Assembly: GCF_057098645.1 (NCBI RefSeq) | Contig: NZ_CM169472.1 | Direction: 5' to 3' (one strand) | Length of the DNA stretch: 64,000 bases | Part shown: positions 6,210-58,017 of the stretch, in pieces | Layout of the letters: the number at the start of each line of letters is the position of its first letter | How positions within the stretch are numbered: position 1 is the first letter of the stretch | Notes under the pieces: generated by a model | What the model was told of the DNA's origin: nothing | Seen by the model: only the letters and a program-made list of their open reading frames with translations | Database searches by the model: none | Program-made: the position numbers and the translations under genes

Positions 6210-6285
6210 GGGTCGTTAGCTCAGTTGGTAGAGCAGTTGACTTTTAATCAATTGGTCGCAGGTTCGAATCCTGCACGACCCACCA
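6210..6285 (+). tRNA. lysT: tRNA-Lys (anticodon UUU)
   Basis: GGGTCGTTAGCTCAGTTGGTAGAGCAGTTGACTTTTAATCAATTGGTCGCAGGTTCGAATCCTGCACGACCCACCA; cloverleaf with encoded CCA. Confidence 0.9.
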
Positions 6286-6320
6286 CTAACCTAGTTAGTT
6301 GTAGTATCCAGCGTAGTATC

Positions 6321-6396
6321 GGGTGATTAGCTCAGCTGGGAGAGCACCTCCCTTACAAGGAGGGGGTCGGCGGTTCGATCCCGTCATCACCCACCA
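6321..6396 (+). tRNA. valT: tRNA-Val (anticodon UAC)
   Basis: GGGTGATTAGCTCAGCTGGGAGAGCACCTCCCTTACAAGGAGGGGGTCGGCGGTTCGATCCCGTCATCACCCACCA. Confidence 0.9.
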
Positions 6397-6398
6397 CC

Positions 6399-6474
6399 GG
6401 GTCGTTAGCTCAGTTGGTAGAGCAGTTGACTTTTAATCAATTGGTCGCAGGTTCGAATCCTGCACGACCCACCA
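6399..6474 (+). tRNA. lysW: tRNA-Lys (UUU)
   Basis: Identical 76-nt tRNA-Lys unit, 2 nt after valT. Confidence 0.9.
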
Positions 6475-6525
6475 CTAATTACGGTGGGTTCGGTGGAAGT
6501 AGTTTGTAGTATCCAGCGCAGTATC

Positions 6526-6601
6526 GGGTGATTAGCTCAGCTGGGAGAGCACCTCCCTTACAAGGAGGGGGTCGGCGGTTCGATCCCGTCATCACCCACC
6601 A
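6526..6601 (+). tRNA. valZ: tRNA-Val (UAC)
   Basis: Identical 76-nt tRNA-Val unit. Confidence 0.9.
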
Positions 6602-6604
6602 CTC

Positions 6605-6680
6605 GGGTCGTTAGCTCAGTTGGTAGAGCAGTTGACTTTTAATCAATTGGTCGCAGGTTCGAATCCTGCACGACCCACCA
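6605..6680 (+). tRNA. lysY: tRNA-Lys (UUU)
   Basis: Identical 76-nt tRNA-Lys unit. Confidence 0.9.
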
Positions 6681-6733
6681 ATTTTAACATCAAACTCAGA
6701 TGTTAAGCGTGAAGGATAACGTTGCGCCAGCAA

Positions 6734-6778
6734 CGGCCCGTAGGGCGAGCGAAGCGAGTCATCCTGCACGACCCACCA
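6734..6778 (+). repeat. tRNA-Lys 3-prime-end remnant repeat, copy 1
   Basis: CGGCCCGTAGGGCGAGCGAAGCGAGTCATCCTGCACGACCCACCA ends in the last 17 nt of tRNA-Lys; near-identical copy at 7123..7166. Confidence 0.6.
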
Positions 6779-6826
6779 ATCTTAAAGATTGGCCCCGAGT
6801 AAAAATCTTTCAGGTAACACCCGTAT

Positions 6827-6902
6827 GGGTCGTTAGCTCAGTTGGTAGAGCAGTTGACTTTTAATCAATTGGTCGCAGGTTCGAATCCTGCACGACCCAC
6901 CA
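6827..6902 (+). tRNA. lysZ: tRNA-Lys (UUU)
   Basis: Identical 76-nt tRNA-Lys unit. Confidence 0.9.
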
Positions 6903-6935
6903 TCCTGAATGATTAAAGCAGCATAATCCCGCAAG

Positions 6936-7011
6936 GGGTCGTTAGCTCAGTTGGTAGAGCAGTTGACTTTTAATCAATTGGTCGCAGGTTCGAATCCTGC
7001 ACGACCCACCA
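6936..7011 (+). tRNA. lysQ: tRNA-Lys (UUU)
   Basis: Identical 76-nt tRNA-Lys unit, last of the array. Confidence 0.9.
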
Positions 7012-41545: not shown

Positions 41546-41575
41546 ATGCAAACTCTTTCTGAACGCCTCAAGAAG
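41546..41575 (+). pseudogene. cro: 434-type cro truncated after codon 10 by an IS insertion
   Basis: ATG CAA ACT CTT TCT GAA CGC CTC AAG AAG (MQTLSERLKK) runs directly into the IS terminal repeat TGAACCGCCCC. Confidence 0.75.
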
Positions 41576-41617
41576 TGAACCGCCCCGGGTTTCCTGGAGA
41601 GTATTTTATCTGTGAAC

Positions 41618-42508
41618 TCAGGCTGCCAGATCATTATTTCCGATGGAAGCATAATAAGCTTTTTCTGCTTCTGCCGGAGGAATATGGCCCAGCCTTTCCA
41701 GCAATCGTCGATTGTTATACCAGTCCACCCACGTGAGTGTGGCCAGTTCCACTTCTGCACGGTTTTTCCAGCTCTTACGGTGTATTACCTCCGCTTTGTA
41801 AAGACCATTGATGCTCTCCGCCATCGCGTTGTCATACGAGTCGCCAGTACTCCCTGTTGATGCCAGTAATCCGGCTTCCTTAAGCCGCTGCGTGTAGGCC
41901 AGCGATACATACTGAGAACCTTTATCACTGTGATGGATTGTGCCGGACGGCCGACGGGCCCACAACGCCTGCTCCAGTGCATCCAGCACGAATGTTGTTT
42001 CCATGGATGATGAGACCTGCCATCCCACGATGTATCCGGCGAACACATCAATGATGAACGCCACATAAACGAAGCCCCGCCATGTGCTGACGTAAGTAAA
42101 ATCAGCCACCCACAGCTGGTCAGGTCGTTCTGCCACGAACTGACGGTTTACGCGGTCGCCTGCGGCAACGGCTTTCCGGCTGATGGTCGTACGGACCTTT
42201 TTACCCCGGAGAACACCGGCAAGTCCCATAACTGCCATGAGACGTGCCACAGTGCATCTGGCCACTCTGATACCTTCCCGTAACAACTGACGCCAGACTT
42301 TACGCACACCGTATACCTGGTGATTTTCATCGTATACGCGCTGTATCTCTTTCTTCAGCCAGTCATCGTGCTGCGCACGGGCACTGCGTTTATCCGGATG
42401 ATGTCGCTGTTGCTGACAGTGGTAATACGTTGACGGGGCAATATGCAGTTCGCTGCATAGCGGTCCGACCCCGTACTGCTCACGCAGCTTATCCAGCAGT
42501 GGCATCAT
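41618..42508 (-). CDS. IS629-like transposase OrfB (DDE/integrase domain)
   Basis: 296-aa ORF with IS3-family DDE region ([10 protein letters not shown]...[11 protein letters not shown]). Confidence 0.85.
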
Positions 42509-42831
42509 TTTTTCCAGAGGCGGTCGAACTCCGCCTTCGCAAAATAAGCGGAAGCCTGGCGAAGGATATCGTTACTGCGGCGCAGTTCACGATTTTCACG
42601 CTCCAGCTCTTTCAGACGCTGACGTTCAGCGGTGGTGAGCCCGCCATCACCGCCCCCGGTATCCCGCTCATGCTGGCGAACCCAGACACGCAGAGTCTCC
42701 GGCGTACAGCCAATCTTTGGAGCAATGGAACAAATTGTCGCCCATTGTGAGTCATATTCATCCTGACTTTCCAGAACCATACGAATCGCCCGCTGACGGA
42801 CTTCGGGGGAAAAACGAGTATTTTTAGTCAT
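42505..42831 (-). CDS. IS629-like transposase OrfA (HTH)
   Basis: 108 aa, [50 protein letters not shown]... Confidence 0.85.
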
Positions 42832-42885
42832 CCTGTTTACCTCTTTCTCAGGGAGTTTAGTCTCCAGGATTTCCGGGGCGGTTCA

Positions 42886-43265
42886 ACCAGCCAGAAAACG
42901 ACCTTTCTGTGGTGAAACCTGATGCTGCATGGGGGACAGCAGAAGACCTGACCGCCGCAGAGTGGATGTTTGACATGGTGAAGACTATCGCGCCATCAGC
43001 CAGAAAACCGAATTTTGCAGGGTGGGCTAACGATATCCGCCTGATGCGTGAACGTGACGGACGTAACCACCGCGATATGTGTGTGCTGTTCCGCTGGGCC
43101 TGCCAGGACAACTTCTGGTCCGGTAATGTGCTGAGCCCGGCCAAACTCCGCGACAAGTGGACCCAGCTCGAAATCAACCGTAACAAGCAACAGGCAGTCG
43201 TGACAGCCAGCAAACCAAAACTCGACCTGACAAACACAGACTGGATTTACGGGGTGGATTTATGA
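42886..43265 (+). pseudogene. O: Lambda O replication initiator, C-terminal fragment only
   Basis: ...WGTAEDLTAAEWMFDMVKTIAPSARKPNFAGWANDIRLMRERDGRNHRDMCVLFRW...TDWIYGVDL; begins at the IS boundary. Confidence 0.8.
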
Positions 43266-43963
43266 AAAACATCGCCGCACAGATGGTTAACTTTGACCGT
43301 GAGCAGATGCGTCGGATCGCCAACAACATGCCGGAACAGTACGACGAAAAGCCTCAGGTACAGCAGGTAGCGCAGATCATCAACGGTGTGTTCAGCCAGT
43401 TACTGGCAACTTTCCCGGCGAGCCTGGCTAACCGTGACCAGAACGAACTGAACGAAATCCGCCGCCAGTGGGTTCTGGCTTTCCGGGAAAACGGGATCAC
43501 CACAATGGAACAGGTTAACGCAGGAATGCGCGTAGCCCGTCGGCAGAATCGACCATTTCTGCCATCACCCGGGCAGTTTGTTGCATGGTGCCGGGAAGAA
43601 GCATCCGTTATCGCCGGACTGCCAAACGTCAGCGAGCTGGTTGATATGGTTTACGAGTATTGCCGGAAGCGAGGCCTGTATCCGGATGCGGAGTCTTATC
43701 CGTGGAAATCAAACGCGCACTACTGGCTGGTTACCAACCTGTATCAGAACATGCGGGCCAATGCGCTTACTGATGCGGAATTACGGCGCAAGGCTGCCGA
43801 TGAACTGTCCTGTATGACCGCACGAATTAACCGTGGTGAGGCTATACCTGAACCAGTAAAACAACTTCCTGTCATGGGCGGTAGACCTCTAAATCGTGCA
43901 CAGGCTCTGGCGAAGATCGCAGAAATCAAAGCTAAGTTTGGGCTGAAAGGAGCAAGTGTATGA
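43262..43963 (+). CDS. P: Lambda P (DnaB helicase loader)
   Basis: 233 aa, MKNIAAQMVNFDREQMRRIANNMPEQYDEKPQVQQVAQIINGVFSQLLATFPASLANRDQNELNEIRRQW... Confidence 0.95.
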   Translation: MKNIAAQMVNFDREQMRRIANNMPEQYDEKPQVQQVAQIINGVFSQLLATFPASLANRDQNELNEIRRQWVLAFRENGITTMEQVNAGMRVARRQNRPFLPSPGQFVAWCREEASVIAGLPNVSELVDMVYEYCRKRGLYPDAESYPWKSNAHYWLVTNLYQNMRANALTDAELRRKAADELSCMTARINRGEAIPEPVKQLPVMGGRPLNRAQALAKIAEIKAKFGLKGASV

Positions 43964-44250
43964 CGGGCAAAGAGGCAATTATTCATTACCTGGGGACGCA
44001 TAATAGCTTCTGTGCGCCGGACGTTGCCGCGTTAACAGGCGCAACAGTAACCAGCATAAATCAGGCCGCGGCTAAAATGGCACGGGCAGGTCTTCTGGTT
44101 ATCGAAGGTAAGGTCTGGCGAACGGTGTATTACCGGTTCGCTACTAGGGAAGAACGGGAAGGAAAGATGAGCACGAACCTGATTTTTAAGGAGTGTCGCC
44201 AGAGTGCCGCGATGAAACGGGTATTGGCGGTATATGGAGTTAAAAGATGA
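43960..44250 (+). CDS. ren: Lambda Ren
   Basis: 96 aa, MTGKEAIIHYLGTHNSFCAPDVAALTGATVTSINQAAAKMARAGLLVIEGKVWRTVYYRF... Confidence 0.9.
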   Translation: MTGKEAIIHYLGTHNSFCAPDVAALTGATVTSINQAAAKMARAGLLVIEGKVWRTVYYRFATREEREGKMSTNLIFKECRQSAAMKRVLAVYGVKR

Positions 44251-44323
44251 CCATCTACATCACTGAGCTAATAACAGGCCTGCTGGTAATCGCAGGCCTT
44301 TTTATTTGGGGGAGAGGGAAGTC

Positions 44324-44764
44324 ATGAAAAAACTAACCTTTGAAATTCGATCTCCAGCACATCAGCAAAACGCTATTCACGCAGTACAGCAAATCCTTCC
44401 AGACCCAACCAAACCAATCGTAGTAACCATTCAGGAACGCAACCGCAGCTTAGACCAAAACAGGAAGCTATGGGCCTGCTTAGGTGACGTCTCTCGTCAG
44501 GTTGAATGGCATGGTCGCTGGCTGGATGCAGAAAGCTGGAAGTGTGTGTTTACCGCAGCATTAAAGCAGCAGGATGTTGTTCCTAACCTTGCCGGGAATG
44601 GCTTTGTGGTAATAGGCCAGCCAACCAGCAGGATGCGTGTAAGCGAATTTGCGGAGCTATTAGAGCTTATACAGGCATTCGGTACAGAGCGTGGCGTTAA
44701 GTGGTCAGACGAAGCGCGACTGGCTCTCGAATGGAAAGCGCGATGGGGAGATCGGGCTGCATGA
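44324..44764 (+). CDS. ninB: NinB (Orf recombination mediator)
   Basis: 146 aa from MKKLTFEIRSPAHQQNAIHAVQQILPDPTKPIVVTIQERNRSLDQNRKLW... Confidence 0.9.
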   Translation: MKKLTFEIRSPAHQQNAIHAVQQILPDPTKPIVVTIQERNRSLDQNRKLWACLGDVSRQVEWHGRWLDAESWKCVFTAALKQQDVVPNLAGNGFVVIGQPTSRMRVSEFAELLELIQAFGTERGVKWSDEARLALEWKARWGDRAA

Positions 44765-45288
44765 CTATCAAATCAAATACGCCAGCACACGACAAGGACT
44801 GCTGGCAAACGCCGCTTTGGCTTTTTGATGCACTGGATATTGAGTTTGGATTCTGGCTGGATTCGGCAGCGAGCGACAAAAACGCTCTGTGCGCTCACTG
44901 GCTAACTGAGGCTGACGACGCGCTAAATTCTGAGTGGATAAGCCACGGTGCAATCTGGAATAACCCACCGTACAGCAATATCAGGCCGTGGGTGGAAAAA
45001 GCCGCTGAGCAGTGCATACAACAGCGACAGACGGTAGTGATGCTTGTGCCAGAGGATATGTCTGTCGGATGGTTCAGCAAGGCTCTGGAGAGTGTTGACG
45101 AAGTTCGTATTATCACTGATGGACGGATTAATTTTATCGAACCATCGACAGGGCTGGAGAAGAAGGGAAACAGCAAAGGCTCCATGCTGCTGATTTGGCG
45201 ACCGTTCATTAGTCCTCGACGGATGTTTACTATCGTATCCAAAGCGGCATTGATGGCGATCGGGCAGGGCGTCAGGAGGGCGGCATGA
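44761..45288 (+). CDS. Phage N6-adenine DNA methyltransferase (orphan, NPPY motif)
   Basis: 175 aa with WQTPLWLFD and NPPY motifs; ATG overlaps the ninB stop; in the nin-region slot. Confidence 0.7.
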
Positions 45289-45467
45289 GGCGACAACGAC
45301 GAAGTTTCACCGACATCATCTGCGAAAACTGCAAATACCTTCCAACGAAACGCTCCAGAAATAAACGCAAGCCAATCCCAAAAGAATCTGACGTAAAAAC
45401 CTTCAACTACACGGCTCACCTGTGGGATATCCGGTGGCTAAGACATCGTGCGAGGAATACAAGGTGA
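45285..45467 (+). CDS. ninE: NinE-like protein
   Basis: 60 aa, [52 protein letters not shown]... Confidence 0.75.
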
Positions 45468-45634
45468 TTGACCCAAATCGAAGTTACGAACAAGAAAGCG
45501 TCGAGCGGGCTTTAACGTGCGCTAATTGCGGTCAGAAGCTGCATGTGCTGGAAGTTCACGTGTGTGAGCACTGCTGTGCAGAGCTGATGAGCGATTCGAA
45601 TAGCTCGATGCACGAGGAAGAAGATGATGGCTAA
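45464..45634 (+). CDS. ninF: NinF-like protein (GTG start)
   Basis: 56 aa, [42 protein letters not shown]..., cysteine-rich. Confidence 0.7.
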
Positions 45635-46238
45635 ACCAGCGCGAAGACGATGTAAAAACGATGAATGTCGGGAATGGTTTCACCCTGCATTCGCTAATCA
45701 GTGGTGGTGCTCTCCAGAGTGTGGAACCAAGATAGCACTCGAACGACGAAGTAAAGAACGCGAAAAAGCGGAAAAAGCAGCAGAGAAGAAACGACGACGA
45801 GAGGAGCAGAAACAGAAAGATAAACTTAAGATTCGAAAACTCGCCTTAAAGCCCCGCAGTTACTGGATTAAACAAGCCCAACAAGCCGTAAACGCCTTCA
45901 TCAGAGAAAGAGACCGCGACTTACCATGTATCTCGTGCGGAACGCTCACGTCTGCTCAGTGGGATGCCGGACATTACCGGACAACTGCTGCGGCACCTCA
46001 ACTCCGATTTGATGAACGCAATATTCACAAGCAATGCGTGGTGTGCAACCAGCACAAAAGCGGAAATCTCGTTCCGTATCGCGTCGAACTGATTAGCCGC
46101 ATCGGGCAGGAAGCAGTAGACGAAATCGAATCAAACCATAACCGCCATCGCTGGACTGTCGAAGAGTGCAAGGCGATCAAGGCAGAGTACCAACAGAAAC
46201 TCAAAGACCTGCGAAACAGCAGAAGTGAGGCTGCATGA
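45624..46238 (+). CDS. ninG: NinG (Rap Holliday-junction endonuclease)
   Basis: 204 aa, [56 protein letters not shown]... Confidence 0.9.
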
Positions 46239-46900
46239 ATATCTACGAAAGAATTGATGGCAGCAAATACCGAAATATTTGGGTAGCTGGCGACCTGCAC
46301 GGATGCTACACGAACCTGATGAACAAACTGGATACGATTGGATTCGACACCAAAAAAGACCTGCTCATCTCGGTTGGCGATTTGGTTGATCGCGGTACAG
46401 AGAACGTCGAATGTCTGGAATTAATCACATTCCCCTGGTTCAGAGCTGTGCGTGGAAACCATGAGCAAATGATGATTGATGGCTTATCAGAGCGTGGAAA
46501 CGTTAATCACTGGCTGCTTAATGGCGGTGGCTGGTTCTTTAATCTCGATTACGACAAAGAGACTCTGGCTAAAGTTCTTGCCCATAAAGCAGAAGAACTT
46601 CCGTTAATCATCGAACTGGTGAGCAAAGATAAAAAATATGTCATTTGCCACGCCGATTATCCTTGTGATAAATACGAGTTTGGAAAGCCAGTTGATCATC
46701 AGCAGGTAATCTGGAACCGCGAACGAATCAGCAACTCACAAGACGGGATCGTGAAAGAAATCAAAGGCGCGGACACGTTCATCTTTGGTCATACGCCAGC
46801 AGTGAAACCACTCAAATTTGCCAACCAGATGTATATCGATACTGGCGCAGTGTTCTGCGGAAACCTCACATTGATTCAGGTACAGGGAGAAGGCGCATGA
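46235..46900 (+). CDS. ninI: NinI Ser/Thr protein phosphatase (metallophosphatase)
   Basis: 221 aa, GDLHGC and GNHE metallophosphoesterase motifs. Confidence 0.9.
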
Positions 46901-46986
46901 GACTCGAAAGCGTAGCTAAATTTCATTCGCCAAAAAGCCCGATGATGAGCGACTCACTACTGGCCATAGTTTATTGGTTTTCGTAA
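46897..46986 (+). pseudogene. Q: Lambda Q antiterminator, N-terminal stub only
   Basis: [20 protein letters not shown] matches the start of lambda Q, then diverges and stops after 29 codons. Confidence 0.7.
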
Positions 46987-47111
46987 CTGAGTCATTTTAT
47001 TATTTTATTGCAACTTTTAATCTTTTATAGTGCGAAATAAATGGAGCTGGCATTCATTTCGCACTTTATGTTTTTGTTGGACTTATGTTATTTTGATTGA
47101 ATTCAATTCAG

Positions 47112-48071
47112 TTAAAAAAAGAAGGTGATTGCTCCATTTATAAATGAATAGTCATCCCCTGTCTTGAATTCTGATGTTACTTTATTAAATGCTAGTGTGA
47201 AGGCTACAGGTGCATACCCAATTGTTGCGCCAACTTGATATTCATCAACAGTTTTGTTTAGCGATACTGTTGTTTGTTTCGTCTGTATTGTTTTTCCTTC
47301 GAGAGTATAGTTGCGATTGACATCTCGTCTTTCCATACCTGCAAAAATCTTGTATTTGAATCCGCTTGTATCGGACATATGCATTAAACCACGGGGAGCC
47401 AGCAGACCAAAGCCATTATCCGAATTGAAGGTTTTATCATTACCAATGGCAATGGTTGCGCCATATGCTACATATTGAAATAAGTTTCCAGTAACAGCAG
47501 AAACTTCAGGGTATAATCCAACATTAGCACCTAAAATATCCATACTTGGTGTCATGGATAGCATCCCTTTTACAGTATAACCGTAGCGATTCTCTATTTG
47601 ATCATCCCATGCATGATATTTTTCTGCCCCAATAATCTCATGAGCTTTATTTTGTACTTTCTGACCGCCTGCGTCGGGGCCAACAACACCTATGTCAGTA
47701 CCTAATCGATAGCGAATCCAGTCATTCGCAAGGGAGTTCCATTCAATACCAGTGTGAGTGTATGCACTAAAAGCTCTGTCTCCAGTTACAGCTGTGTTGT
47801 GTCTTTTATTACTGCCTGATGGAGAGTAAATATCTTGCGCAATATGGAGAGATAATTGGCTCGAGTCTGAGATATCGTGGCTATATCCCAGAAATAAGCC
47901 TTGTGAGTAATCATCTCTGTTTTCATGTTTATTGCCATAAATATCATTAAGTATTGGTTGAAACTTCCCTGCATCATCATTTGCTAATGATAATGCAAGG
48001 CTGTTCGCGATAGCTGAACACGTGGTAAATGACAGAGCAATAAAGACGCCAGCGATGACACTTTTTTTCAT
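47112..48071 (-). CDS. Outer-membrane beta-barrel protein, LpxR (lipid A 3-prime-O-deacylase)-like by length and architecture
   Basis: 319 aa, signal peptide MKKSVIAGVFIALSFTTCSAIA, C-terminal aromatic residues (ITFFF); visibly AT-rich with a long AT-rich upstream region. Confidence 0.45.
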   Translation of the reverse strand: MKKSVIAGVFIALSFTTCSAIANSLALSLANDDAGKFQPILNDIYGNKHENRDDYSQGLFLGYSHDISDSSQLSLHIAQDIYSPSGSNKRHNTAVTGDRAFSAYTHTGIEWNSLANDWIRYRLGTDIGVVGPDAGGQKVQNKAHEIIGAEKYHAWDDQIENRYGYTVKGMLSMTPSMDILGANVGLYPEVSAVTGNLFQYVAYGATIAIGNDKTFNSDNGFGLLAPRGLMHMSDTSGFKYKIFAGMERRDVNRNYTLEGKTIQTKQTTVSLNKTVDEYQVGATIGYAPVAFTLAFNKVTSEFKTGDDYSFINGAITFFF

Positions 48072-48462
48072 ATGTTATTGTCTTCCTTTTTTTTGAATGG
48101 TGCGCGTATTTTACATACATGAGTTTGTAATACAAGGTGCGTAATCAATATGATGTTTTATAATTGCGTGAGACAATTGATTTATTCGTTTTTTATTGCG
48201 GTTTTATTATCTTTTAATGTAATGGTGTTTTTATTAAGTGTGTTTGCGTGGTGTTTTATGTTTTTTATAATTTTTTATTTTATTAAATTTAAATGCATTA
48301 GTAATGGCTATTCTATATAGCAATATAAGAACTGTTACAAAAAAAGGGGGGGCAATTACAGGTAGTTATGGATGATGAGTGAAACAGATATTGGAGAACC
48401 GGGGAATGAATGATGTCTGAGTCTTATATATCAGAACTCCTTCGCTGTCGCTGGGGGCTCCT

Positions 48463-49236
48463 GTGCTTATGTCGTTTCCCCGATTCGGTTTTGAACGATT
48501 ACCGAATGTTGAAGAATTATGCCAAAATATAGAAAGGATTTACTGCATGAATACCCAATATTTACAGTATGTTCGTGAGCAACTTATGGCAGCTACTGCT
48601 GACTTGAACGGAGCAACGAAAGGCCAGCTCGAAGCCTGGCAGGAGCATGCACAATTTGATACTGGTACATACAAACGAAAGAAGCCGCGCATTCTGGATG
48701 TGGTAACTGGCAAGATGATTACGCTGGATAATACGCCGACTTCCGGTAAGCAGTCGTACGCAAAAGGTTCATCCATTGCTTTGGTCAGCCCGGTTGAATT
48801 CTCAACCTCTTCATGGCGCCGCGCGGTTTTGTCTCTCGATGAACATCAGAAAGCATGGTTGCTTTGGTGTTACAGCGAAAGCGTTCGATGGGGGCATCAG
48901 GTCACCATAACGCAATGGGCATGGAGCGAGTTTAAAGATTTGTTAAGTAACAGAAAAATTGCAGGTAAGACACTGGATCGCCTGAAGACGTTAATCTGGC
49001 TGGCTGCACAGGATGTGAAGAGCGAACTTGCAGGGCGTGAGGCCTATGAATACCAGACACTGGCATCATTGGTGGGAGTGACAACAAAAAACTGGTCCGA
49101 GACATTTACTGAACGCTGGGTTGCAATGAAGCACATTTTTCTACAGCTTGATAGTGATGCTTTATTGCTTGTGACGAGAACACGTTCAAAACAAAAGGCA
49201 GCATTTTTACAGCAAAATATTGCAAAACTGGATTAA
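48463..49236 (+). CDS. Hypothetical protein, possibly a non-lambda late-gene regulator; start uncertain (alternative ATG at 48547)
   Basis: 257-aa ORF downstream of the Q stub, no zinc-finger cysteines; function not assignable from sequence. Confidence 0.35.
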   Translation: MLMSFPRFGFERLPNVEELCQNIERIYCMNTQYLQYVREQLMAATADLNGATKGQLEAWQEHAQFDTGTYKRKKPRILDVVTGKMITLDNTPTSGKQSYAKGSSIALVSPVEFSTSSWRRAVLSLDEHQKAWLLWCYSESVRWGHQVTITQWAWSEFKDLLSNRKIAGKTLDRLKTLIWLAAQDVKSELAGREAYEYQTLASLVGVTTKNWSETFTERWVAMKHIFLQLDSDALLLVTRTRSKQKAAFLQQNIAKLD

Positions 49237-49405
49237 AAGCCATATACTTCATGCAAATTTGGTATGTTGTAAAAAATGTATAAACCCGCTGCCGAGTGGG
49301 TTTTTTTTATGCCCTGAGTTGTACTTGTACGGTAAACATGCTGGCTGCTATGTAATAGAGTTTTTTTAGCCTGTAACCTCTTGACGGCATTGAATTGCTT
49401 TTGTT

Positions 49406-50164
49406 ATGAGTTGTAAGCCAATGTTATCATCTTGTATTGGGGTGGTTATGAAGGATGGTGCGCTGCTCAGGAGTTCTTCACTTTTTATTGCCTACATGGG
49501 ATGCCTTGGATGGGGGAGTGCTTATTTCTATGGATGGGGTACTTCTTTTTACTACGGCTTCCCATGGTGGATTGTAGGTGCAGGTGTTGATGATGTTGCC
49601 AGAAGTTTATTTTTTGCAGTTATCGTCATTGCTATATTTCTTATCGGTTGGGGTATTGGTGTTGTATTCTTTTTCGCAGTGAAAAGAAAACATTCTATGC
49701 AAGAGCTAAATGTATTTCGCCTTTATTTTGCTGTGGAATTATTGTTTGTGCCGGCAATTATTGAGTTTTCTATATTGAGACAGAAGATTCAGGTACCTCT
49801 TTTGCTACTGTCAGCAGCGATTGCGCTGGCGGTTACAATTTCGATAAGATCTTATGGGCGATTTTTATCGGTATCATGCTTCTATGATAAGCCATTTATA
49901 AAAAAACATTTTTTTGAGATTGTGATGATTGCTTTTGTGGCATATTTTTGGCTTTTTTCATTTCTGACAGGATATTACAAACCACAGTTTAAGAAAGAAT
50001 ATGAAATGATTAATTATAATGATGGTTGGTATTATGTTCTTGCTCGTTATGATAATTGTCTGGTTTTGTCTACTTCTTTCAATGCAGGTAGTAAAAGGTT
50101 TGTCATTTATCAATCAGCACAAGATAAGAATCTTCAGGTTGATATTGTAAGGACCAGAATTTAA
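49406..50164 (+). CDS. Hypothetical polytopic membrane protein (cargo gene in the Q-to-lysis region)
   Basis: 252-aa ORF, several hydrophobic helices, visibly AT-rich. Confidence 0.5.
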   Translation: MSCKPMLSSCIGVVMKDGALLRSSSLFIAYMGCLGWGSAYFYGWGTSFYYGFPWWIVGAGVDDVARSLFFAVIVIAIFLIGWGIGVVFFFAVKRKHSMQELNVFRLYFAVELLFVPAIIEFSILRQKIQVPLLLLSAAIALAVTISIRSYGRFLSVSCFYDKPFIKKHFFEIVMIAFVAYFWLFSFLTGYYKPQFKKEYEMINYNDGWYYVLARYDNCLVLSTSFNAGSKRFVIYQSAQDKNLQVDIVRTRI

Positions 50165-50297
50165 TTGGCTGCATAAATAATATTTTAAGTTGCAAGTTGG
50201 CTATTCGTAGGAATAGAACCTTAGGCATGCTGAATGCGTTTTCTGAACATTGTTTTATAAACTGTGTCTGCTTGCTGTTGTGATCCTGCTTTTAGTG

Positions 50298-50408
50298 ATG
50301 GTGATGATGGATTTCACCAGCAGGATAATGTTGGTACTGACTGATGGCGCTCTGGTCTGCGGCATTGTGGTATTGCTGTGGCCGATGATGAAAGAACAGA
50401 ATGAATAA
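50298..50408 (+). CDS. Putative 36-aa hydrophobic peptide
   Basis: MVMMDFTSRIMLVLTDGALVCGIVVLLWPMMKEQNE, one TM-like segment; below the ORF-track cutoff. Confidence 0.3.
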   Translation: MVMMDFTSRIMLVLTDGALVCGIVVLLWPMMKEQNE

Positions 50409-50593
50409 TTCTTGACTTTTTTGTTTACTGTTTATTAAAAAATCAACCGCATGGTGAATCCTCCTTGGAGGGGCTAAATGATCGAGTTTTAAGGGCACGT
50501 AGCGAGTTCTGTTTGATCATTGCAGAACTTAGCGGGAGGCGCCATGCGTACATCACTAGTGTTATTCCTTTTATCATTTTCCTTGTGAGTTCT

Positions 50594-50620
50594 GGCTGCG
50601 CATTGCGCAGCCTTTTTTTT
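50594..50620 (+). terminator. Intrinsic terminator (possible late-leader terminator)
   Basis: ggctgcgca-t-tgcgcagcc followed by TTTTTTTT. Confidence 0.6.
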
Positions 50621-50706
50621 ATGACCTGCCACTGGCAGATGGTCATCCTGTGATTTGATTCCGCTTCCGGCTTTTTAACTCTGTTCCTCTACACGGGAGA
50701 AATTCG

Positions 50707-52556
50707 ATGTCGATTAAACATTACGATGTTGTCAGGGCGGCGTCGCCGTCAGACCTTGCGGAAAAGCTGACACACAAACTGAAAGAGGGCTGGCAGCCAT
50801 ACGGCGGACCGGTTGCCATTACGCCGTACACACTGATGCAGGCGGTGGCTATTGAAGGAGAGCCACAGGTCGGCCCTTCATCTGAGCCGGATTGGTACTA
50901 CGTCATCGTACTGGCCGGGCAGTCCAATGCCATGGCTTACGGTGAAGGGCTTCCGCTGCCGGATTCATACGATGCTCCGGATCCGCGCATTAAACAGCTG
51001 GCGCGCCGCAGTACAGTGACGCCGGGCGGGGCTGCCTGCAGATATAACGATATTATTCCGGCTGACCACTGTCTGCATGATGTGCAGGATATGAGTACGC
51101 TGAATCATCCGAGGGCTGACCTGAGCAAAGGGCAGTACGGCTGTGTCGGTCAGGGTTTACATATTGCCAAAAAACTGCTCCCGTATATCCCGAATAACGC
51201 GGGGATCCTGCTGGTACCATGCTGTCGTGGTGGTTCGGCATTTACCCAGGGCGCGGAGGGGACATTCAGCGAGTCCACGGGGGCCAGTCAGGATTCGGCA
51301 CGCTGGGGGTGGGCAAGCCGTTATATCAGGATCTGATTTCCCGCACAAAAGCGGCATTGCAGAAAAATCCCAAAAACGTTCTGCTGGCCGTCTGCTGGAT
51401 GCAGGGTGAGTTTGACATGAGCGCCGCCACCCACGCACAGCAACCTGCGCTGTTTACAGCCATGCTGACACAGTTTCGTGCTGACCTCTCCGTGTTTAAC
51501 GCGCAGTGCCATGGTGGCAGTGCTGCAGATGTGCCGTGGATTTGTGGTGACACGACGTATTACTGGAAAAATACATACGCTACCCAGTACGACACCGTGT
51601 ACGGCGGGTATAAAAACAGGGAGAGTGAGGGCGTTTATTTTGTGCCCTTCATGACAGACGGTAACGGCGTCAATACCGCCACTAACGCGCCGGCAGAAGA
51701 TCCGGATATTCCGGCATCAGGATATTACGGTGCGGCATCGAGAACGAATGGAAACCAGGTATCATCAAACCGCCCGACACATTTCAGTTCATGGGCGCGC
51801 AGGAGCATTATTCCGGATCGTCTGGCAACCGCTATTCTGAACGCAGCCGGGCGCACCTCAGCCTTCATCAGTGGTAAGGCACCGGAAATCAAACCCTCGC
51901 CCGGCGGCAACACGCCATCGGGTCCGTCTGCAGATACGTCCGTTCGCACAATCTCCCTGCTGCCGGCAGCCGGAGAGGCTGCTGCGCAGGGCTGGAGCAT
52001 TAAGGATGGCGGAATTCAGTTGTCAGATGGTGTATTTAAGATCACCAAGCAGAGCAATAAAACCTGGTCCCTGACGCATCCGGTGGATGACGCAATTACC
52101 CTGCTGACACAGGGCGGCAGACTGACCTGTAAGTTCCGCCTGTCAGGCGCACTGACCAACAATCAGTTCGGGCTGGGGATTTATCTGTATACGGATGCTC
52201 CCGTTCCTGATGGTGTGGCGATGACGGGTACCGGTAATCCGTTCCTGATGTCGTACTTCACTCAGACCACTGACGGCAGAGTGAATCTGATGCATCACAG
52301 GAAAGCCGGAAACACGAAGCTGGGGGAGTTCGGCGATTACGGTAACGACTGGCAGACGCTGGAGCTGGTGTTCACCGCCGGCAGTGCCACGGTTACTCCG
52401 AAACTGAATGGAGTGGCTGGCCCGGCATTCCAGGTTATAAAAGACAGTCTGACACTGGGACTGAATGCGCTGACGCTGACGGATGTTACAAAAAATGCAG
52501 CGTATGGCGTTGAGATAGAAAGTCTGATGCTGGAGATAAATGCACCGGCAGCATAA
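50707..52556 (+). pseudogene. Prophage sialate O-acetylesterase-like (NanS-p family) gene, split by a frameshift at a G5 run
   Basis: N-terminal esterase half (GQSN motif) in ORF 50707..51336 and C-terminal half in ORF 51219..52556; the frames meet at the G-run near 51281-51285. Confidence 0.6.
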
Positions 52557-52728
52557 TAAAAAAAGCCAGCGACTGACCTGAAAAAGAAGACGCTGGCTAA
52601 AAGGCCTTATATGTTTGTAGAGACTTATTTTTCACAGACAGCAATGATGCCTGTCAATATATTATCAATATGCGGATTGTTTCAGTTACAGATGCCTTAT
52701 TAAGGAAAAAAACAGCCAGCTGTAGTGG

Positions 52729-53756
<1,028 letters not shown>

Positions 53757-53760
<4 letters not shown>

Positions 53761-54197
53761 TGCCACTGCTGGATAAGCTGCGTGAGCAGTACGGGGTCGG
53801 ACCGCTATGCAGCGAACTGCATATTGCCCCGTCAACGTATTACCACTGTCAGCAACAGCGACATCATCCGGATAAACGCAGTGCCCGTGCGCAGCGCGAT
53901 GACTGGCTGAAGAAAGAGATACAGCGCGTATACGATGAAAATCACAAGGTATACGGTGTGCGTAAAGTCTGGCGTCAGTTGTTACGGGAAGGTATCAGAG
54001 TGGCCAGATGCACTGTGGCACGTCTCATGGCGGTTATGGGACTTGCCGGTGTTCTCCGGGGTAAAAAGGTCCGTACGACCATCAGCCGGAAAGCCGTTGC
54101 CGCAGGCGACCGCGTAAACCGTCAGTTCGTGGCAGAACGACCTGACCAGCTGTGGGTGGCTGATTTTACTTACGTCAGCACATGGCAGGGCTTCGTG
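53757..54197 (+). pseudogene. IS629-like OrfB, N-terminal part (copy 2), interrupted by IS21-family insertion
   Basis: Matches copy-1 OrfB up to ...[14 protein letters not shown], then reads into the foreign element. Confidence 0.8.
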
Positions 54198-54294
54198 CGT
54201 ATTCCGCTCTATTCGATCACGGATTGGCATCGAAGTCCGATCAGCGATTCGCATCCATTCGATCAACCGGGAACTTAACTTTTTCTACCGCTTT

Positions 54295-55050
54295 TTAACG
54301 CGTTTTTTCGCTGCTTTCCACTACCGGGGGATTTTTCCTCAGTGACTCTCCCTGAAGGACCACTCGGTGTGAGTTATGTACCAGTCTGTCCAGGATGGCA
54401 TCTGCTGTTGTTGGGTTCTCCATCAGACCATGCCATTTATCTACCGGGAACTGGCTTACCACTATCGTGCTGCTTTGTCCGTAACGATCCTCTATGAGCT
54501 CCAGAAGGTCATTACACTGGGCGTTACTTAACTGTTCCAGCCCCAGATCGTCCAGGATTAGAACCTGTATTTTTTGCAACTGTTTCAGATATTTCAGCCA
54601 GCTGCCATCAACACGTCCCTGAGCCAGTTGTTCCAGTAATCGCCCGGTTCTACAGTACCGGACGCTGTGTTTCTGTCGACATGCCTGTTCGCCCAGCGCA
54701 TTGGCTATCCAGCTCTTGCCACATCCTGTCGGACCGGTTATCAGCAGGTTTTTCCTGTGGGTTATGTAGTGGCCGTTCAGCAGTTCTCTCATCTGTTCAG
54801 CCCGCAGACCTCTTGAGGCCGGATAGCGCAGCCCTTCCGGTGTTGCCTGGTATTTCAGGCCGGCATTTTTTCTCAACCGTGCCACACGGCTGTTTTCCCT
54901 GCTCAGAAGCTCGTCATCAACCAGCAGCGTCAGCCTTTCCTCGAACGACAGTTCGTCGTAGGTCTGAGGCGTTTCCCGCTGCCGTATCAGGCTCCCGGCC
55001 ATCGCCGGGAGTTTCAGTTGGGTCAGTTTGTTTAACAGGTTATCACTCAT
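54295..55050 (-). CDS. istB: IstB-like ATPase helper of IS21-family transposition
   Basis: Walker A GPTGCGKS; start taken at MSDNLLNKLTQLKLP within the longer ORF. Confidence 0.8.
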   Translation of the reverse strand: MSDNLLNKLTQLKLPAMAGSLIRQRETPQTYDELSFEERLTLLVDDELLSRENSRVARLRKNAGLKYQATPEGLRYPASRGLRAEQMRELLNGHYITHRKNLLITGPTGCGKSWIANALGEQACRQKHSVRYCRTGRLLEQLAQGRVDGSWLKYLKQLQKIQVLILDDLGLEQLSNAQCNDLLELIEDRYGQSSTIVVSQFPVDKWHGLMENPTTADAILDRLVHNSHRVVLQGESLRKNPPVVESSEKTR

Positions 55051-55066
55051 ACTGTTGTTCCTTCTG

Positions 55067-56602
55067 TCAGTGGTAGTAGCCCGGACCACGCAGGTTTTCA
55101 TGCTCTGAAGCATATGCCGGATGTTGTTCGCCCTGGCGGGATAATGGAAGCTCCAGGTTCTCCCGATGGTGACGCAGCAGATTGTCGATAAAGCGTCTGT
55201 CAGGGGCGTTATAGTGCAGGGCAACGTAACAGGCCTTTTCCAGCCGTTCCGGGCCGTATTTTTTCTGAAGTGCCAGCAGCCCCAGAACTGCACGATAAGC
55301 CAGTTCCGGATGGGGTTTTGCCTTCAGCATGGATTCAACCACCCGGCCTGTGGACGGGCCCGTACGTTTTCCCTGCTCGATCAGGCGTTCCGGTGTCCAT
55401 GTCCCGTGCTGCCGGTGGCGCTCTGGCATGTGAAGCGGATTGGTTGTGTGTTTATATTCATGTGTGCTGCGCGGATGTTGCGCCACACACTGCCCCTTGT
55501 GCCAGAGCTGTACCACCGACTGCCCCGCCTTCAGTGACAGACGCTGACCGACCAGTTCGTGTGGAACGGAGTACCAGTGACGGGCATATTCAACGTGGTA
55601 GTCAGGGCCAACCTTCACAGCTTTGTATTCCGTGTATTCATAAGGTGCCAGAGGCAGCGGAGAGAGTGCTGGCGCATCCAGTATGCGGAAGCGTTCTGCA
55701 CGGGTTTGATTGCCGTACCCCTTCATTGGCCGGTTATTCATGTCTGTCAGTAACTCCCTAAGGCGCGCATTCAGCGCCCTGAGCGTGTGGAAGGTTTCAT
55801 TACGGATGCGGGCAAGAAGCCATCGTTCAACGATGAGGACGCCGTTTTCTGCTTTTGGTTTATCTTTAGGTTTGCGTGGTCGGGCCGGGATGATAACCGT
55901 GCCATAGTGCTCAGCCAGTGCCTGATAACTGTCGTTGATGACAGGCTCATATCGATCGGCCTTTTTCACTGCGCTTCTGAGGTTATCGGGGATGAGCAGC
56001 TTCGGTACGCCGCCCAGGAAGGTCAGGCAACGGCTGTGGGCATTTAACCATGACATCATGTCCTGACCTTCGCACGCTTCAACGTAGGTATAGTTGGACG
56101 CCCCCATTACGGCCACGAAGATTGCCACGCGGCGTATCTCACCGGTGTCCGGATTAATAACAGGAACCGTAGGACCACAGAAGTCGATAAAAAGCTTTTC
56201 GCCGGCACGATGCTCCTGGCGCATGGAGAGACGTCGCGTTTTTTTCCACTCCCGGTAGCAACGGCAGAAGTGCGAGTATCCCATCGCTTTGTTACCCGCC
56301 TGTGCCTTGTATTCCATCCACAACAGTTGCCGCGTCACACCTGGTTTTCTCATTTCCGTATCGAAGTACAACATGTCAGGCATTACAAGCTCTGATGCAA
56401 AGGTGTCTTTGGGCGGAAAAATGAGTTTCTCCAGCGTGTCATGGGATATATCAGCAGGTAATGGCCATGACAGAGAAGAGGCTTTGAAGCGGGCAAGAAC
56501 CTCAAAAACGGTTGAGGCGCTGATGTGTAACGTCAGTCCGATACAACGGTTAGTCAGCTTCTTGTCGAACTTGAGCTGAAGGATCTTAAAACAGGTTTCC
56601 AT
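55067..56602 (-). CDS. istA: IstA-like IS21-family transposase; start uncertain
   Basis: Long ORF with N-terminal HTH and DDE-type core, ends 16 nt upstream of istB. Confidence 0.7.
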   Translation of the reverse strand: METCFKILQLKFDKKLTNRCIGLTLHISASTVFEVLARFKASSLSWPLPADISHDTLEKLIFPPKDTFASELVMPDMLYFDTEMRKPGVTRQLLWMEYKAQAGNKAMGYSHFCRCYREWKKTRRLSMRQEHRAGEKLFIDFCGPTVPVINPDTGEIRRVAIFVAVMGASNYTYVEACEGQDMMSWLNAHSRCLTFLGGVPKLLIPDNLRSAVKKADRYEPVINDSYQALAEHYGTVIIPARPRKPKDKPKAENGVLIVERWLLARIRNETFHTLRALNARLRELLTDMNNRPMKGYGNQTRAERFRILDAPALSPLPLAPYEYTEYKAVKVGPDYHVEYARHWYSVPHELVGQRLSLKAGQSVVQLWHKGQCVAQHPRSTHEYKHTTNPLHMPERHRQHGTWTPERLIEQGKRTGPSTGRVVESMLKAKPHPELAYRAVLGLLALQKKYGPERLEKACYVALHYNAPDRRFIDNLLRHHRENLELPLSRQGEQHPAYASEHENLRGPGYYH

Positions 56603-56742
56603 AGTGCTCCTGGATTTTCTCTTTCTGGACATTGACGTCTCCACTGGTTTAAACACGGCAATGGAGACTGTGGTGAAAAGAGTTAATTCCCGGAGTGACT
56701 GGCAGGATGCCAATCAATGATCGGAAGCATGCCAAATCGTGA

Positions 56743-57291
<549 letters not shown>

Positions 57292-57303
57292 GTTCACAGA
57301 TAA

Positions 57304-58017
<714 letters not shown>

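Follow-up and report, generated by a model that had tools for sequence, protein, structure and literature searches.

The stretch of DNA examined here, a 64,000-nt window of contig NZ_CM169472.1 (RefSeq assembly GCF_057098645.1), carries between positions 46800 and 50720 what is very probably (at roughly 0.9) part of a coliphage 434-type prophage inserted at the lambda attachment site, namely its control and cargo segment from Q to lysis. In this segment, a stub of a lambda-type Q gene is followed by a leftward lpxR gene, a phage 82-type Q antiterminator gene with a putative late promoter, pause element, and terminator, two membrane protein genes, and the gene of the small RNA (sRNA) PasD2, all upstream of an esterase pseudogene and the lysis genes (Table 1). 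The region is already described by the phage 434 record together with the literature on LpxR, Q82, and PasD, and nothing about it is new as a whole. A first-pass annotation of the window, made from the sequence alone, had read it as a lambdoid element with a replaced late region, and all features that it listed exist at or near the positions it gave. What differs from lambda is indeed the Q-to-lysis control and cargo segment, but only that segment, and the resulting arrangement is that of classical phage 434.

The fully annotated genome of coliphage 434 (OL657226) matches the region at 99.6% nucleotide identity and shows the same gene order, i.e., Q stub, lpxR, ylcG, a Q82-like gene, a terminator, a membrane protein gene, DUF3927/TciB, another terminator, and the esterase gene. 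Not a single difference separates the two between positions 48347 and 51304, which include Q, its late promoter pR', tfpB, DUF3927, and pasD. The segment departs from phage 434 by one single-nucleotide polymorphism (SNP) in the Q stub (T to I), by an 8-bp tandem duplication (ATTTTATT) at 46994-47001, where a spacer separates the stub from the end of lpxR, and by two SNPs and small indels upstream of lpxR, in the AT-rich region that with 4 of the 10 differences is the most divergent part. The flanking esterase gene, outside the segment considered here, adds a 1-bp deletion and two further SNPs. The similarity to phage 434 reaches far to the left, at 99% to 100% from the attP core (window position ca. 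32538) across int, the early-left genes, and cI, including a 935-bp stretch over cI and the OR operators that is 100% identical and ends at 41575 after about the first 30 nt of cro. It resumes at 99.8% with replication gene O and continues until the esterase gene ends (42929-52720). The ca. 1.35 kb in between (41575-42929), where phage 434 carries most of cro, cII, and the start of O, gave no blastn alignment to this phage, which suggests a mosaic exchange.

Because of these matches to phage 434, a Lys/Val tRNA cluster at 6210-7011, and best matches that are chromosomal (O145:H28 strains, at ca. 0.84 Mb), the element is a chromosomal 434-type lysogen and not an unknown element. The module is common, with at least 80% of positions 46800-50720 found in 617 of 5426 complete Escherichia coli genomes and with copies across hundreds of genomes that are at least 99% identical. 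The same gene order is also found in prophage PP2 of enteropathogenic E. coli (EPEC) O127:H6 strain E2348/69 (NC_011601, 737.6-743.3 kb), with which identity is 99.7% over an interval that opens 13 nt before the stub ATG and closes at the insertion site downstream of the esterase gene. Prophage PP2 carries the experimentally validated sRNA genes pasD2 and pasA, and both its esterase gene and pasA are intact.

Table 1. Features of the prophage segment and its right flank (window coordinates unless an accession is given)
Feature	Position	Strand	Basis
Lambda-type Q remnant, 29-codon open reading frame (ORF)	46897-46986	+	Alignment with lambda (NC_001416) and phage 434
lpxR, predicted outer-membrane lipid A 3'-O-deacylase, 319 aa including signal peptide	47112-48071	-	Pfam; 3FID
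AT-rich lpxR upstream region (putative regulatory)	48072-48409		Composition profile
ylcG / phage 82 orf45-like small ORF, 40 aa	48410-48532	+	PHROG 2705; YlcG in 434 and E2348/69
Predicted Q antiterminator, phage 82 family, 229 aa	48547-49236	+	Pfam PF06323; PHROG 304; phage 82 Q
Putative late promoter pR', 82 type (-35 TTGCAA, 17-nt spacer, -10 TATACT)	49220-49248	+	Consensus scan; conservation
Initial transcribed region, inferred +1 at 49255 (AAA)	49255-49279	+	Alignment register; PMC5001585
First late terminator tR' (9-bp stem, 4-nt loop, T8)	49282-49311	+	Terminator scan; annotated in 434
TfpB-family (PF27470) inner-membrane protein, 238 aa	49448-50164	+	103 homologs labeled PF27470; PHROG 1521
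DUF3927 / "TciB-like" small membrane protein, 52 aa, TTG start	50250-50408	+	Pfam PF13064; PHROG 1470
pasD promoter region (TTGACT at 50412-50417, then A/T-rich -10 region)	50412-50443	+	Sequence reading
pasD2 sRNA gene, 172 nt	50449-50620	+	172/172 identity to E2348/69, NC_011601 741157-741328
SASA-family sialate O-acetylesterase pseudogene (nanS-p / yjhS type)	50707-52556	+	Two ORFs; PHROG 143
IS3-family transposase fragments	52729-53472; 53434-54278; 56749-57291; 57552-57899	-; +; +; -	
IS21-family istA/istB pair	54295-56713	-	
Coliphage 434 segment matching the finding	OL657226 39655-43402		

The left end of the segment is marked by the remnant of lambda Q, of which the start codon overlaps the stop codon of ninI (ATGA). 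Alignment and translation agree with the first-pass annotation that exactly 20 codons are common to the stub and lambda Q, after which nine unrelated codons and a stop follow. At the nucleotide level, identity to lambda ends around 46957-46966 and the sequences are unrelated beyond this point, which supports the earlier proposal that a recombination left the 20-codon stub behind and brought in foreign DNA. The remnant does not contain the DNA-binding and RNA polymerase-binding body of an intact 207-aa lambda-type Q, and it is annotated as "antiterminator-like protein, N-terminal fragment" in phage 434 and as a truncated pseudogene in E2348/69. In the latter prophage, the stub follows ninH and not ninI, so that the left junction lies in a different nin-region background. 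Because homology to E2348/69 nevertheless starts 13 nt before the stub ATG, the alignments indicate that the Q stub travels with the module.

A second and complete antiterminator gene is predicted beyond lpxR, where the first-pass annotation had noted a 257-aa ORF of unknown function (48463-49236) and proposed a reporter test that implied an antiterminator. The frame is open from 48463, but homologs, the Pfam match, and the annotations of phage 434 and of the NCBI Prokaryotic Genome Annotation Pipeline all start at the ATG at 48547 and thus give a protein of 229 aa. This protein matches the Pfam family PF06323 (1.3e-91) as well as PHROG 304 and shares 89% identity with phage 82 Q over 229/229 aa, which identifies it by homology as a presumably functional 82-type Q antiterminator that would confer read-through. 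It shows no similarity to lambda Q, and a sequence search of the PDB gave no match. The small ylcG-like ORF directly upstream has no Pfam match and is 72% identical to orf45 of phage 82. The orf45-Q pair of that phage (rus-orf45-Q, X92588) is therefore kept here in the same order, whereas in place of the rus gene found upstream in phage 82 this prophage has lpxR and the lambda Q stub.

The signals that the 82-type Q is predicted to use lie at the end of its own gene. Hexamer -35 of the putative pR' (49220-49225) sits inside the last Q codons and hexamer -10 (49243-49248) right after the Q stop codon, and both are kept in Q82-family relatives from E. coli, Salmonella, Klebsiella, and Enterobacter phages, with the -10 reading TATAyT. 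The alignment of these relatives holds for ca. 33 nt past the Q stop, i.e., to about +17, before it diverges, and its conserved parts are TTGCAA, TATAyT, and an extended -10-like TGnTATnTT. At 49260-49268 (+6 to +14), the prophage has TGgTATGTT as an extended -10-like sigma70 pause element, and the pause is predicted to end at U +25 (T at 49279). Phage 82 pR' is known to have an extended -10-like pause element, GCC at +15-17, and a pause at +25/26 with U at +25 (PMC5001585). Its register was transferred via the relatives, as record X92588 stops at the Q stop codon and holds no pR' sequence. Phage 82 and the prophage thus have in common a promoter that overlaps the end of Q, an extended -10-like pause element that spans +6 to +14, and a U at +25.

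Downstream of the predicted pause follows tR', of which the RNA folds with -15.3 kcal/mol (z -2.7), and the unit from pR' to tR' would give a late leader of ca. 55 nt. The hallmarks of the Q82 class, its own late promoter, a sigma70 -10-like pause element in the initial transcribed region, and an intrinsic terminator behind it, are all present here, with GTA in place of GCC at +15-17 as the one deviation. A match of the Rfam family STnc240 across this leader and terminator (49243-49312) was rejected as not significant, at 28 bits compared to a gathering score of 55 and with an E value of 0.92. In a consensus scan of the region, promoter-like and terminator-like signals were no more frequent than in shuffled sequence (9 vs. 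12.0+/-3.5 and 3 vs. 3.4+/-1.9, respectively), and the signals described here therefore rest on homology and published RNA data.

The first-pass annotation had instead located the late leader, with a Q-utilization site at which Q would act, at 50414-50620, where it saw a TTGACT...TATTAA element followed by an intrinsic terminator (50594-50620). Both elements are present, and such a leader at 50412-50620 would combine a good -35 hexamer with a strong intrinsic terminator ca. 170 nt downstream and a location upstream of the esterase and lysis genes, while the RNA that starts at 50449 contains the hexamer AATGAT at about +29 to +34. Short terminated late leaders can moreover be stable sRNAs in other lambdoid phages, as in the case of lambda 6S RNA and StxS. 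We nevertheless give this reading hardly any credence. Two genes and 1.2 kb separate the unit from the end of Q, and it lacks the adjacency to and co-variation with Q that would be expected of its target, whereas the Q82-type signals at 49220-49311 (promoter, pause element, terminator) are co-conserved with the Q gene in four genera and fit the published register of 82 pR'. Furthermore, the RNA at 50449-50620 is identical to PasD2, an sRNA that is abundant in uninduced EPEC cultures and depends on Hfq for its stability (PMC8550237).

PasD2 of EPEC E2348/69 was validated by Northern blot and RIL-seq and is listed as a 172-nt RNA at NC_011601 741157-741328 (Table S6 of Pearl Mizrahi et al. 2021, PMC8550237). 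The identity at all of its positions points to an sRNA gene pasD2 with its own promoter at 50412-50620 and not to a leader. The promoter region lies just upstream of the published PasD2 5' end, and TATTAA at 50433-50438 is a candidate -10 element, with a spacer from TTGACT of only 15 nt, so that the pair does not appear among the hits of the consensus scan. By contrast, the PasD terminator (50594-50612 plus T8) was picked up by the scan. In the predicted fold (-58 kcal/mol, z -3.1), the RNA opens with a long 5' hairpin and ends with the terminator hairpin, and the seed UGUGAG lies in the U-rich single strand between them. PasD is known to pair through this seed with CUCACA motifs and is homologous to EcOnc13 of enterohemorrhagic E. 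coli (EHEC; PMC8550237). The Rfam family STnc100 (RF02076) matches over its full length but below the gathering score (41.4 bits vs. 47, E 2.7e-6), consistent with the reported distant relationship of PasD and STnc100 (Zhu et al. 2026, preprint).

The same preprint finds Q and LpxR within 10 kb of >98% of pasD genes and a sialate esterase downstream, and this synteny recurs here with Q and lpxR upstream and the sialate esterase downstream. Among 50,697 phage records, the pasD unit was found only in phages 434 and 2B8. An ORF of 62 aa at 50465-50653, annotated as "putative membrane protein" in phage 434, has no family match, overlaps the pasD sRNA gene, and is probably an annotation artifact.

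The first-pass annotation had proposed that the 319-aa protein on the minus strand is LpxR-like based on length and architecture, and profile and structure-sequence searches now bear this out at the level of sequence. Pfam family PF09982 (LpxR) matches with 1.7e-39 over model positions 2-320 of 323, and Salmonella LpxR of known structure (3FID) aligns with E 3.6e-153 (residues 24-319 to chain residues 2-296). Residues N9, D10, D11, K67, Q118, H122, E128, and Y130 (mature numbering), named as catalytic or substrate-binding in published LpxR work, are all kept, and the catalytic and Ca2+-binding set of N9, D10, T/S34 (here S), and H122, together with K67, Q118, E128, and Y130, is complete. By these sequence hallmarks, the protein is an LpxR lipid A deacylase. 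While the homology to LpxR of Salmonella Typhimurium spans the full length, pocket residues 31, 34, and 35 are G, T, and A in that protein. Prophage LpxR instead has the D31, S34, and Q35 of Yersinia enterocolitica LpxR, of which D31 is reported to exclude aminoarabinose-modified lipid A. By analogy, the prophage enzyme might be latent on aminoarabinose-modified lipid A and, if so, this latency would couple phage-borne lipid A remodeling to PmrAB status.

Unlike the Salmonella and Yersinia genes used for comparison, lpxR is phage-borne here, and the lpxR of EHEC belongs to the Ler regulon. As far as papers citing Ogawa et al. 2018 relate, EHEC lpxR encodes a 3'-O-deacylase, is activated by Pch and Ler, and forms part of the LEE (locus of enterocyte effacement) modulon. 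By analogy, the prophage lpxR may also be regulated by Ler and Pch. The composition profile confirms the long AT-rich stretch upstream of the gene, described already in the first-pass annotation, with a drop to 28% GC at 48100-48399 that is the lowest value.

Between tR' and pasD lie two genes for membrane proteins. The first of these had been described as a 252-aa polytopic membrane protein, and the corresponding ORF (49406-50164) does encode a membrane protein, though one that likely starts at M15 (position 49448) and has 238 aa, since most of its homologs have 237 to 238 aa. The 103 homologs come from Escherichia, Shigella, Citrobacter, Cronobacter, Klebsiella, Enterobacter, Salmonella, and Yersinia, and all of them, including one that is 100% identical, carry a precomputed label of PF27470 (TfpB). 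Their alignment has an invariant N-terminal Gly/aromatic motif. The protein also matches PHROG 1521 ("unknown function"), while a search of Pfam-A found nothing significant with the release used, which does not contain PF27470. It matched nothing in NCBIfam, in the defense models of PADLOC, or in a profile search of the PDB. More broadly, LpxR, Q, TfpB, and the esterase fragments all lacked a match in NCBIfam, and none of the five proteins had one in PADLOC. The abbreviation "TfpB" has only unrelated uses in the literature searched, and a single NCBI record, "protein tfpB" of E. coli EPECa12, is the only source to which the name led. An AlphaFold2 model based on an alignment of 20 sequences is poor (mean pLDDT 58.7, pTM 0.37) and at this low confidence suggests ca. 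five helices and a small C-terminal beta domain.

The second gene encodes a 52-aa DUF3927 protein that is annotated in both phage 434 and E2348/69 and matches Pfam PF13064 (3.5e-14, residues 7-50, model positions 7-49 of 53). The 36-codon hydrophobic peptide described in the first-pass annotation does exist, but as merely the ATG-started C-terminal part of this TTG-started ORF.

The proposal that membrane protein and small peptide sit at the position of the toxin genes in Shiga toxin (Stx) phages is upheld by comparison with the Stx1 phage Stx1_699 (LC567827), in which the order of Q, cargo, stx1AB, yjhS esterase, holin, and endolysin places stx1AB in the same slot, flanked by Q and the esterase. 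The cargo of this prophage is the tfpB-family gene, DUF3927, and pasD in place of stx, and the prophage further differs from Stx phages in the type of Q and in a slot without tRNA genes. About 340 records of Stx phages match the window only from ca. 50694 on, i.e., in the esterase flank, with ca. 80% to 87% identity.

Since both membrane proteins would be encoded on the late transcript that depends on Q, downstream of tR' and ahead of the lysis genes, they could instead be part of the lysis or late-control machinery, for example as timing or exclusion factors tied to Q, and not free-standing cargo. We regard this as unlikely, given that the search of known defense models gave no match and that tfpB-family genes outside prophages (in contigs of Salmonella, Klebsiella, and E. 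coli) stand alone, far from Q and lysis genes and without any phage genes nearby. Their neighbors there are insertion sequence (IS) elements, sseJ, a two-partner secretion locus (TPS/ShlB), an STb enterotoxin gene, and a Rep3 plasmid replicon. This solitary occurrence argues for TfpB as a self-contained accessory gene rather than a lysis component. The two genes fill the Stx slot here, and in other Enterobacteriaceae tfpB homologs lie beside sseJ, STb, two-partner secretion, and plasmid replicons. As a tentative and less likely possibility, TfpB and the adjacent DUF3927 protein may together form an uncharacterized lysogenic-conversion function, for instance a factor that modifies the envelope or mediates exclusion and that is carried along with virulence loci. 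The possible latency of LpxR is a second and smaller option of this kind.

The right flank of the segment is damaged. A single G missing at 51304/51305 relative to phage 434 splits the 616-aa esterase into ORFs of 209 and 445 aa, both of which match PHROG 143 end to end, and so makes the gene a pseudogene. Farther downstream, pasA is split into nt 1-73 on the minus strand at 58008..57936, which are 100% identical to E2348/69, and its last 12 nt at 52717..52706. Between them lies an insertion of 5215 bp (52721-57935) that has a 3-bp target duplication, consists of nested IS DNA, and is located between the esterase and the holin genes inside the late operon. An Rfam match to the ALIL pseudoknot within this insertion (53715-53831, 120 bits) represents the frameshift signal of an IS3 element.

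A frameshifted esterase, a pasA gene split by 5.2 kb of nested IS DNA, and a lambda Q that is no more than a stub are what one would expect of inert prophage debris, in which lpxR, the 82-type Q, and the cargo genes decay without present function. This is very unlikely, however, because the ORFs of the module are all intact, LpxR retains every catalytic residue, and positions 48347-51304 are identical to a viable phage. In addition, the module persists at the near identity noted above in hundreds of genomes, and homologs of lpxR and pasD are expressed and active in EHEC and EPEC.

Several points nonetheless weigh against reading the segment as a working control and cargo unit of this prophage. 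The discriminator of pR' at +15-17 (49269-49271) is GTA here while it is GCC in five Q82-family relatives, and G/C-to-A substitutions at these positions of 82 pR' shortened the pause in vitro (PMC5001585), though viable phage 434 carries the same GTA-containing pR'. The start site of pR' and the position of the pause are assigned by homology only, and expression in this strain is extrapolated from identical or near-identical genes elsewhere. For the TfpB-family and DUF3927 proteins, "cargo" describes a position and not a role. Finally, because the late operon is interrupted by the 5.2-kb nested IS insertion and the esterase is frameshifted, this copy of the prophage may no longer complete a lytic cycle.

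From the identities and the conservation of the parts, we infer expression, activities, and read-through in the following model. A recombination would have cut an ancestral lambda-type Q after codon 20 and introduced three things upstream of the esterase and lysis genes, namely, an lpxR gene that is transcribed leftward and independently, a phage 82-type late-control unit made up of orf45(ylcG), Q, and the promoter, pause element, and terminator that belong to this Q, and a cargo block of the tfpB-family gene, the DUF3927 gene, and pasD. In the lysogen, lpxR would be expressed from its AT-rich upstream region and, judging from the literature, strip the 3'-acyloxyacyl group of lipid A, while pasD would be transcribed from its own promoter and act with Hfq through the seed UGUGAG. 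Upon induction, rightward transcription antiterminated by N would, along the lambdoid pathway, cross the stub and run antisense through lpxR, after which the 82-type Q is made. Q would then engage RNA polymerase at ca. +25 of pR' (49279), where sigma70 holds it in a pause, and the polymerase modified in this way would read through tR' and go on across the cargo genes and the terminator of pasD until it reaches the esterase and lysis genes.

The main value of this analysis is a corrected map of the region, in which the late switch would be a Q of the 82 type whose promoter sits where the Q gene itself ends and in which the "promoter-terminator" unit farther downstream would encode a trans-acting regulatory RNA and not a leader. 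Two small peculiarities of sequence are the pocket of LpxR and the discriminator of pR'. The map brings into view one exchangeable block that is common to the classical laboratory phage 434 and to prophages of EPEC, EHEC, and O145 strains and that would bundle the immune-evasion enzyme LpxR, the virulence-linked sRNA PasD, and two unstudied membrane proteins at the site where others carry Shiga toxin.

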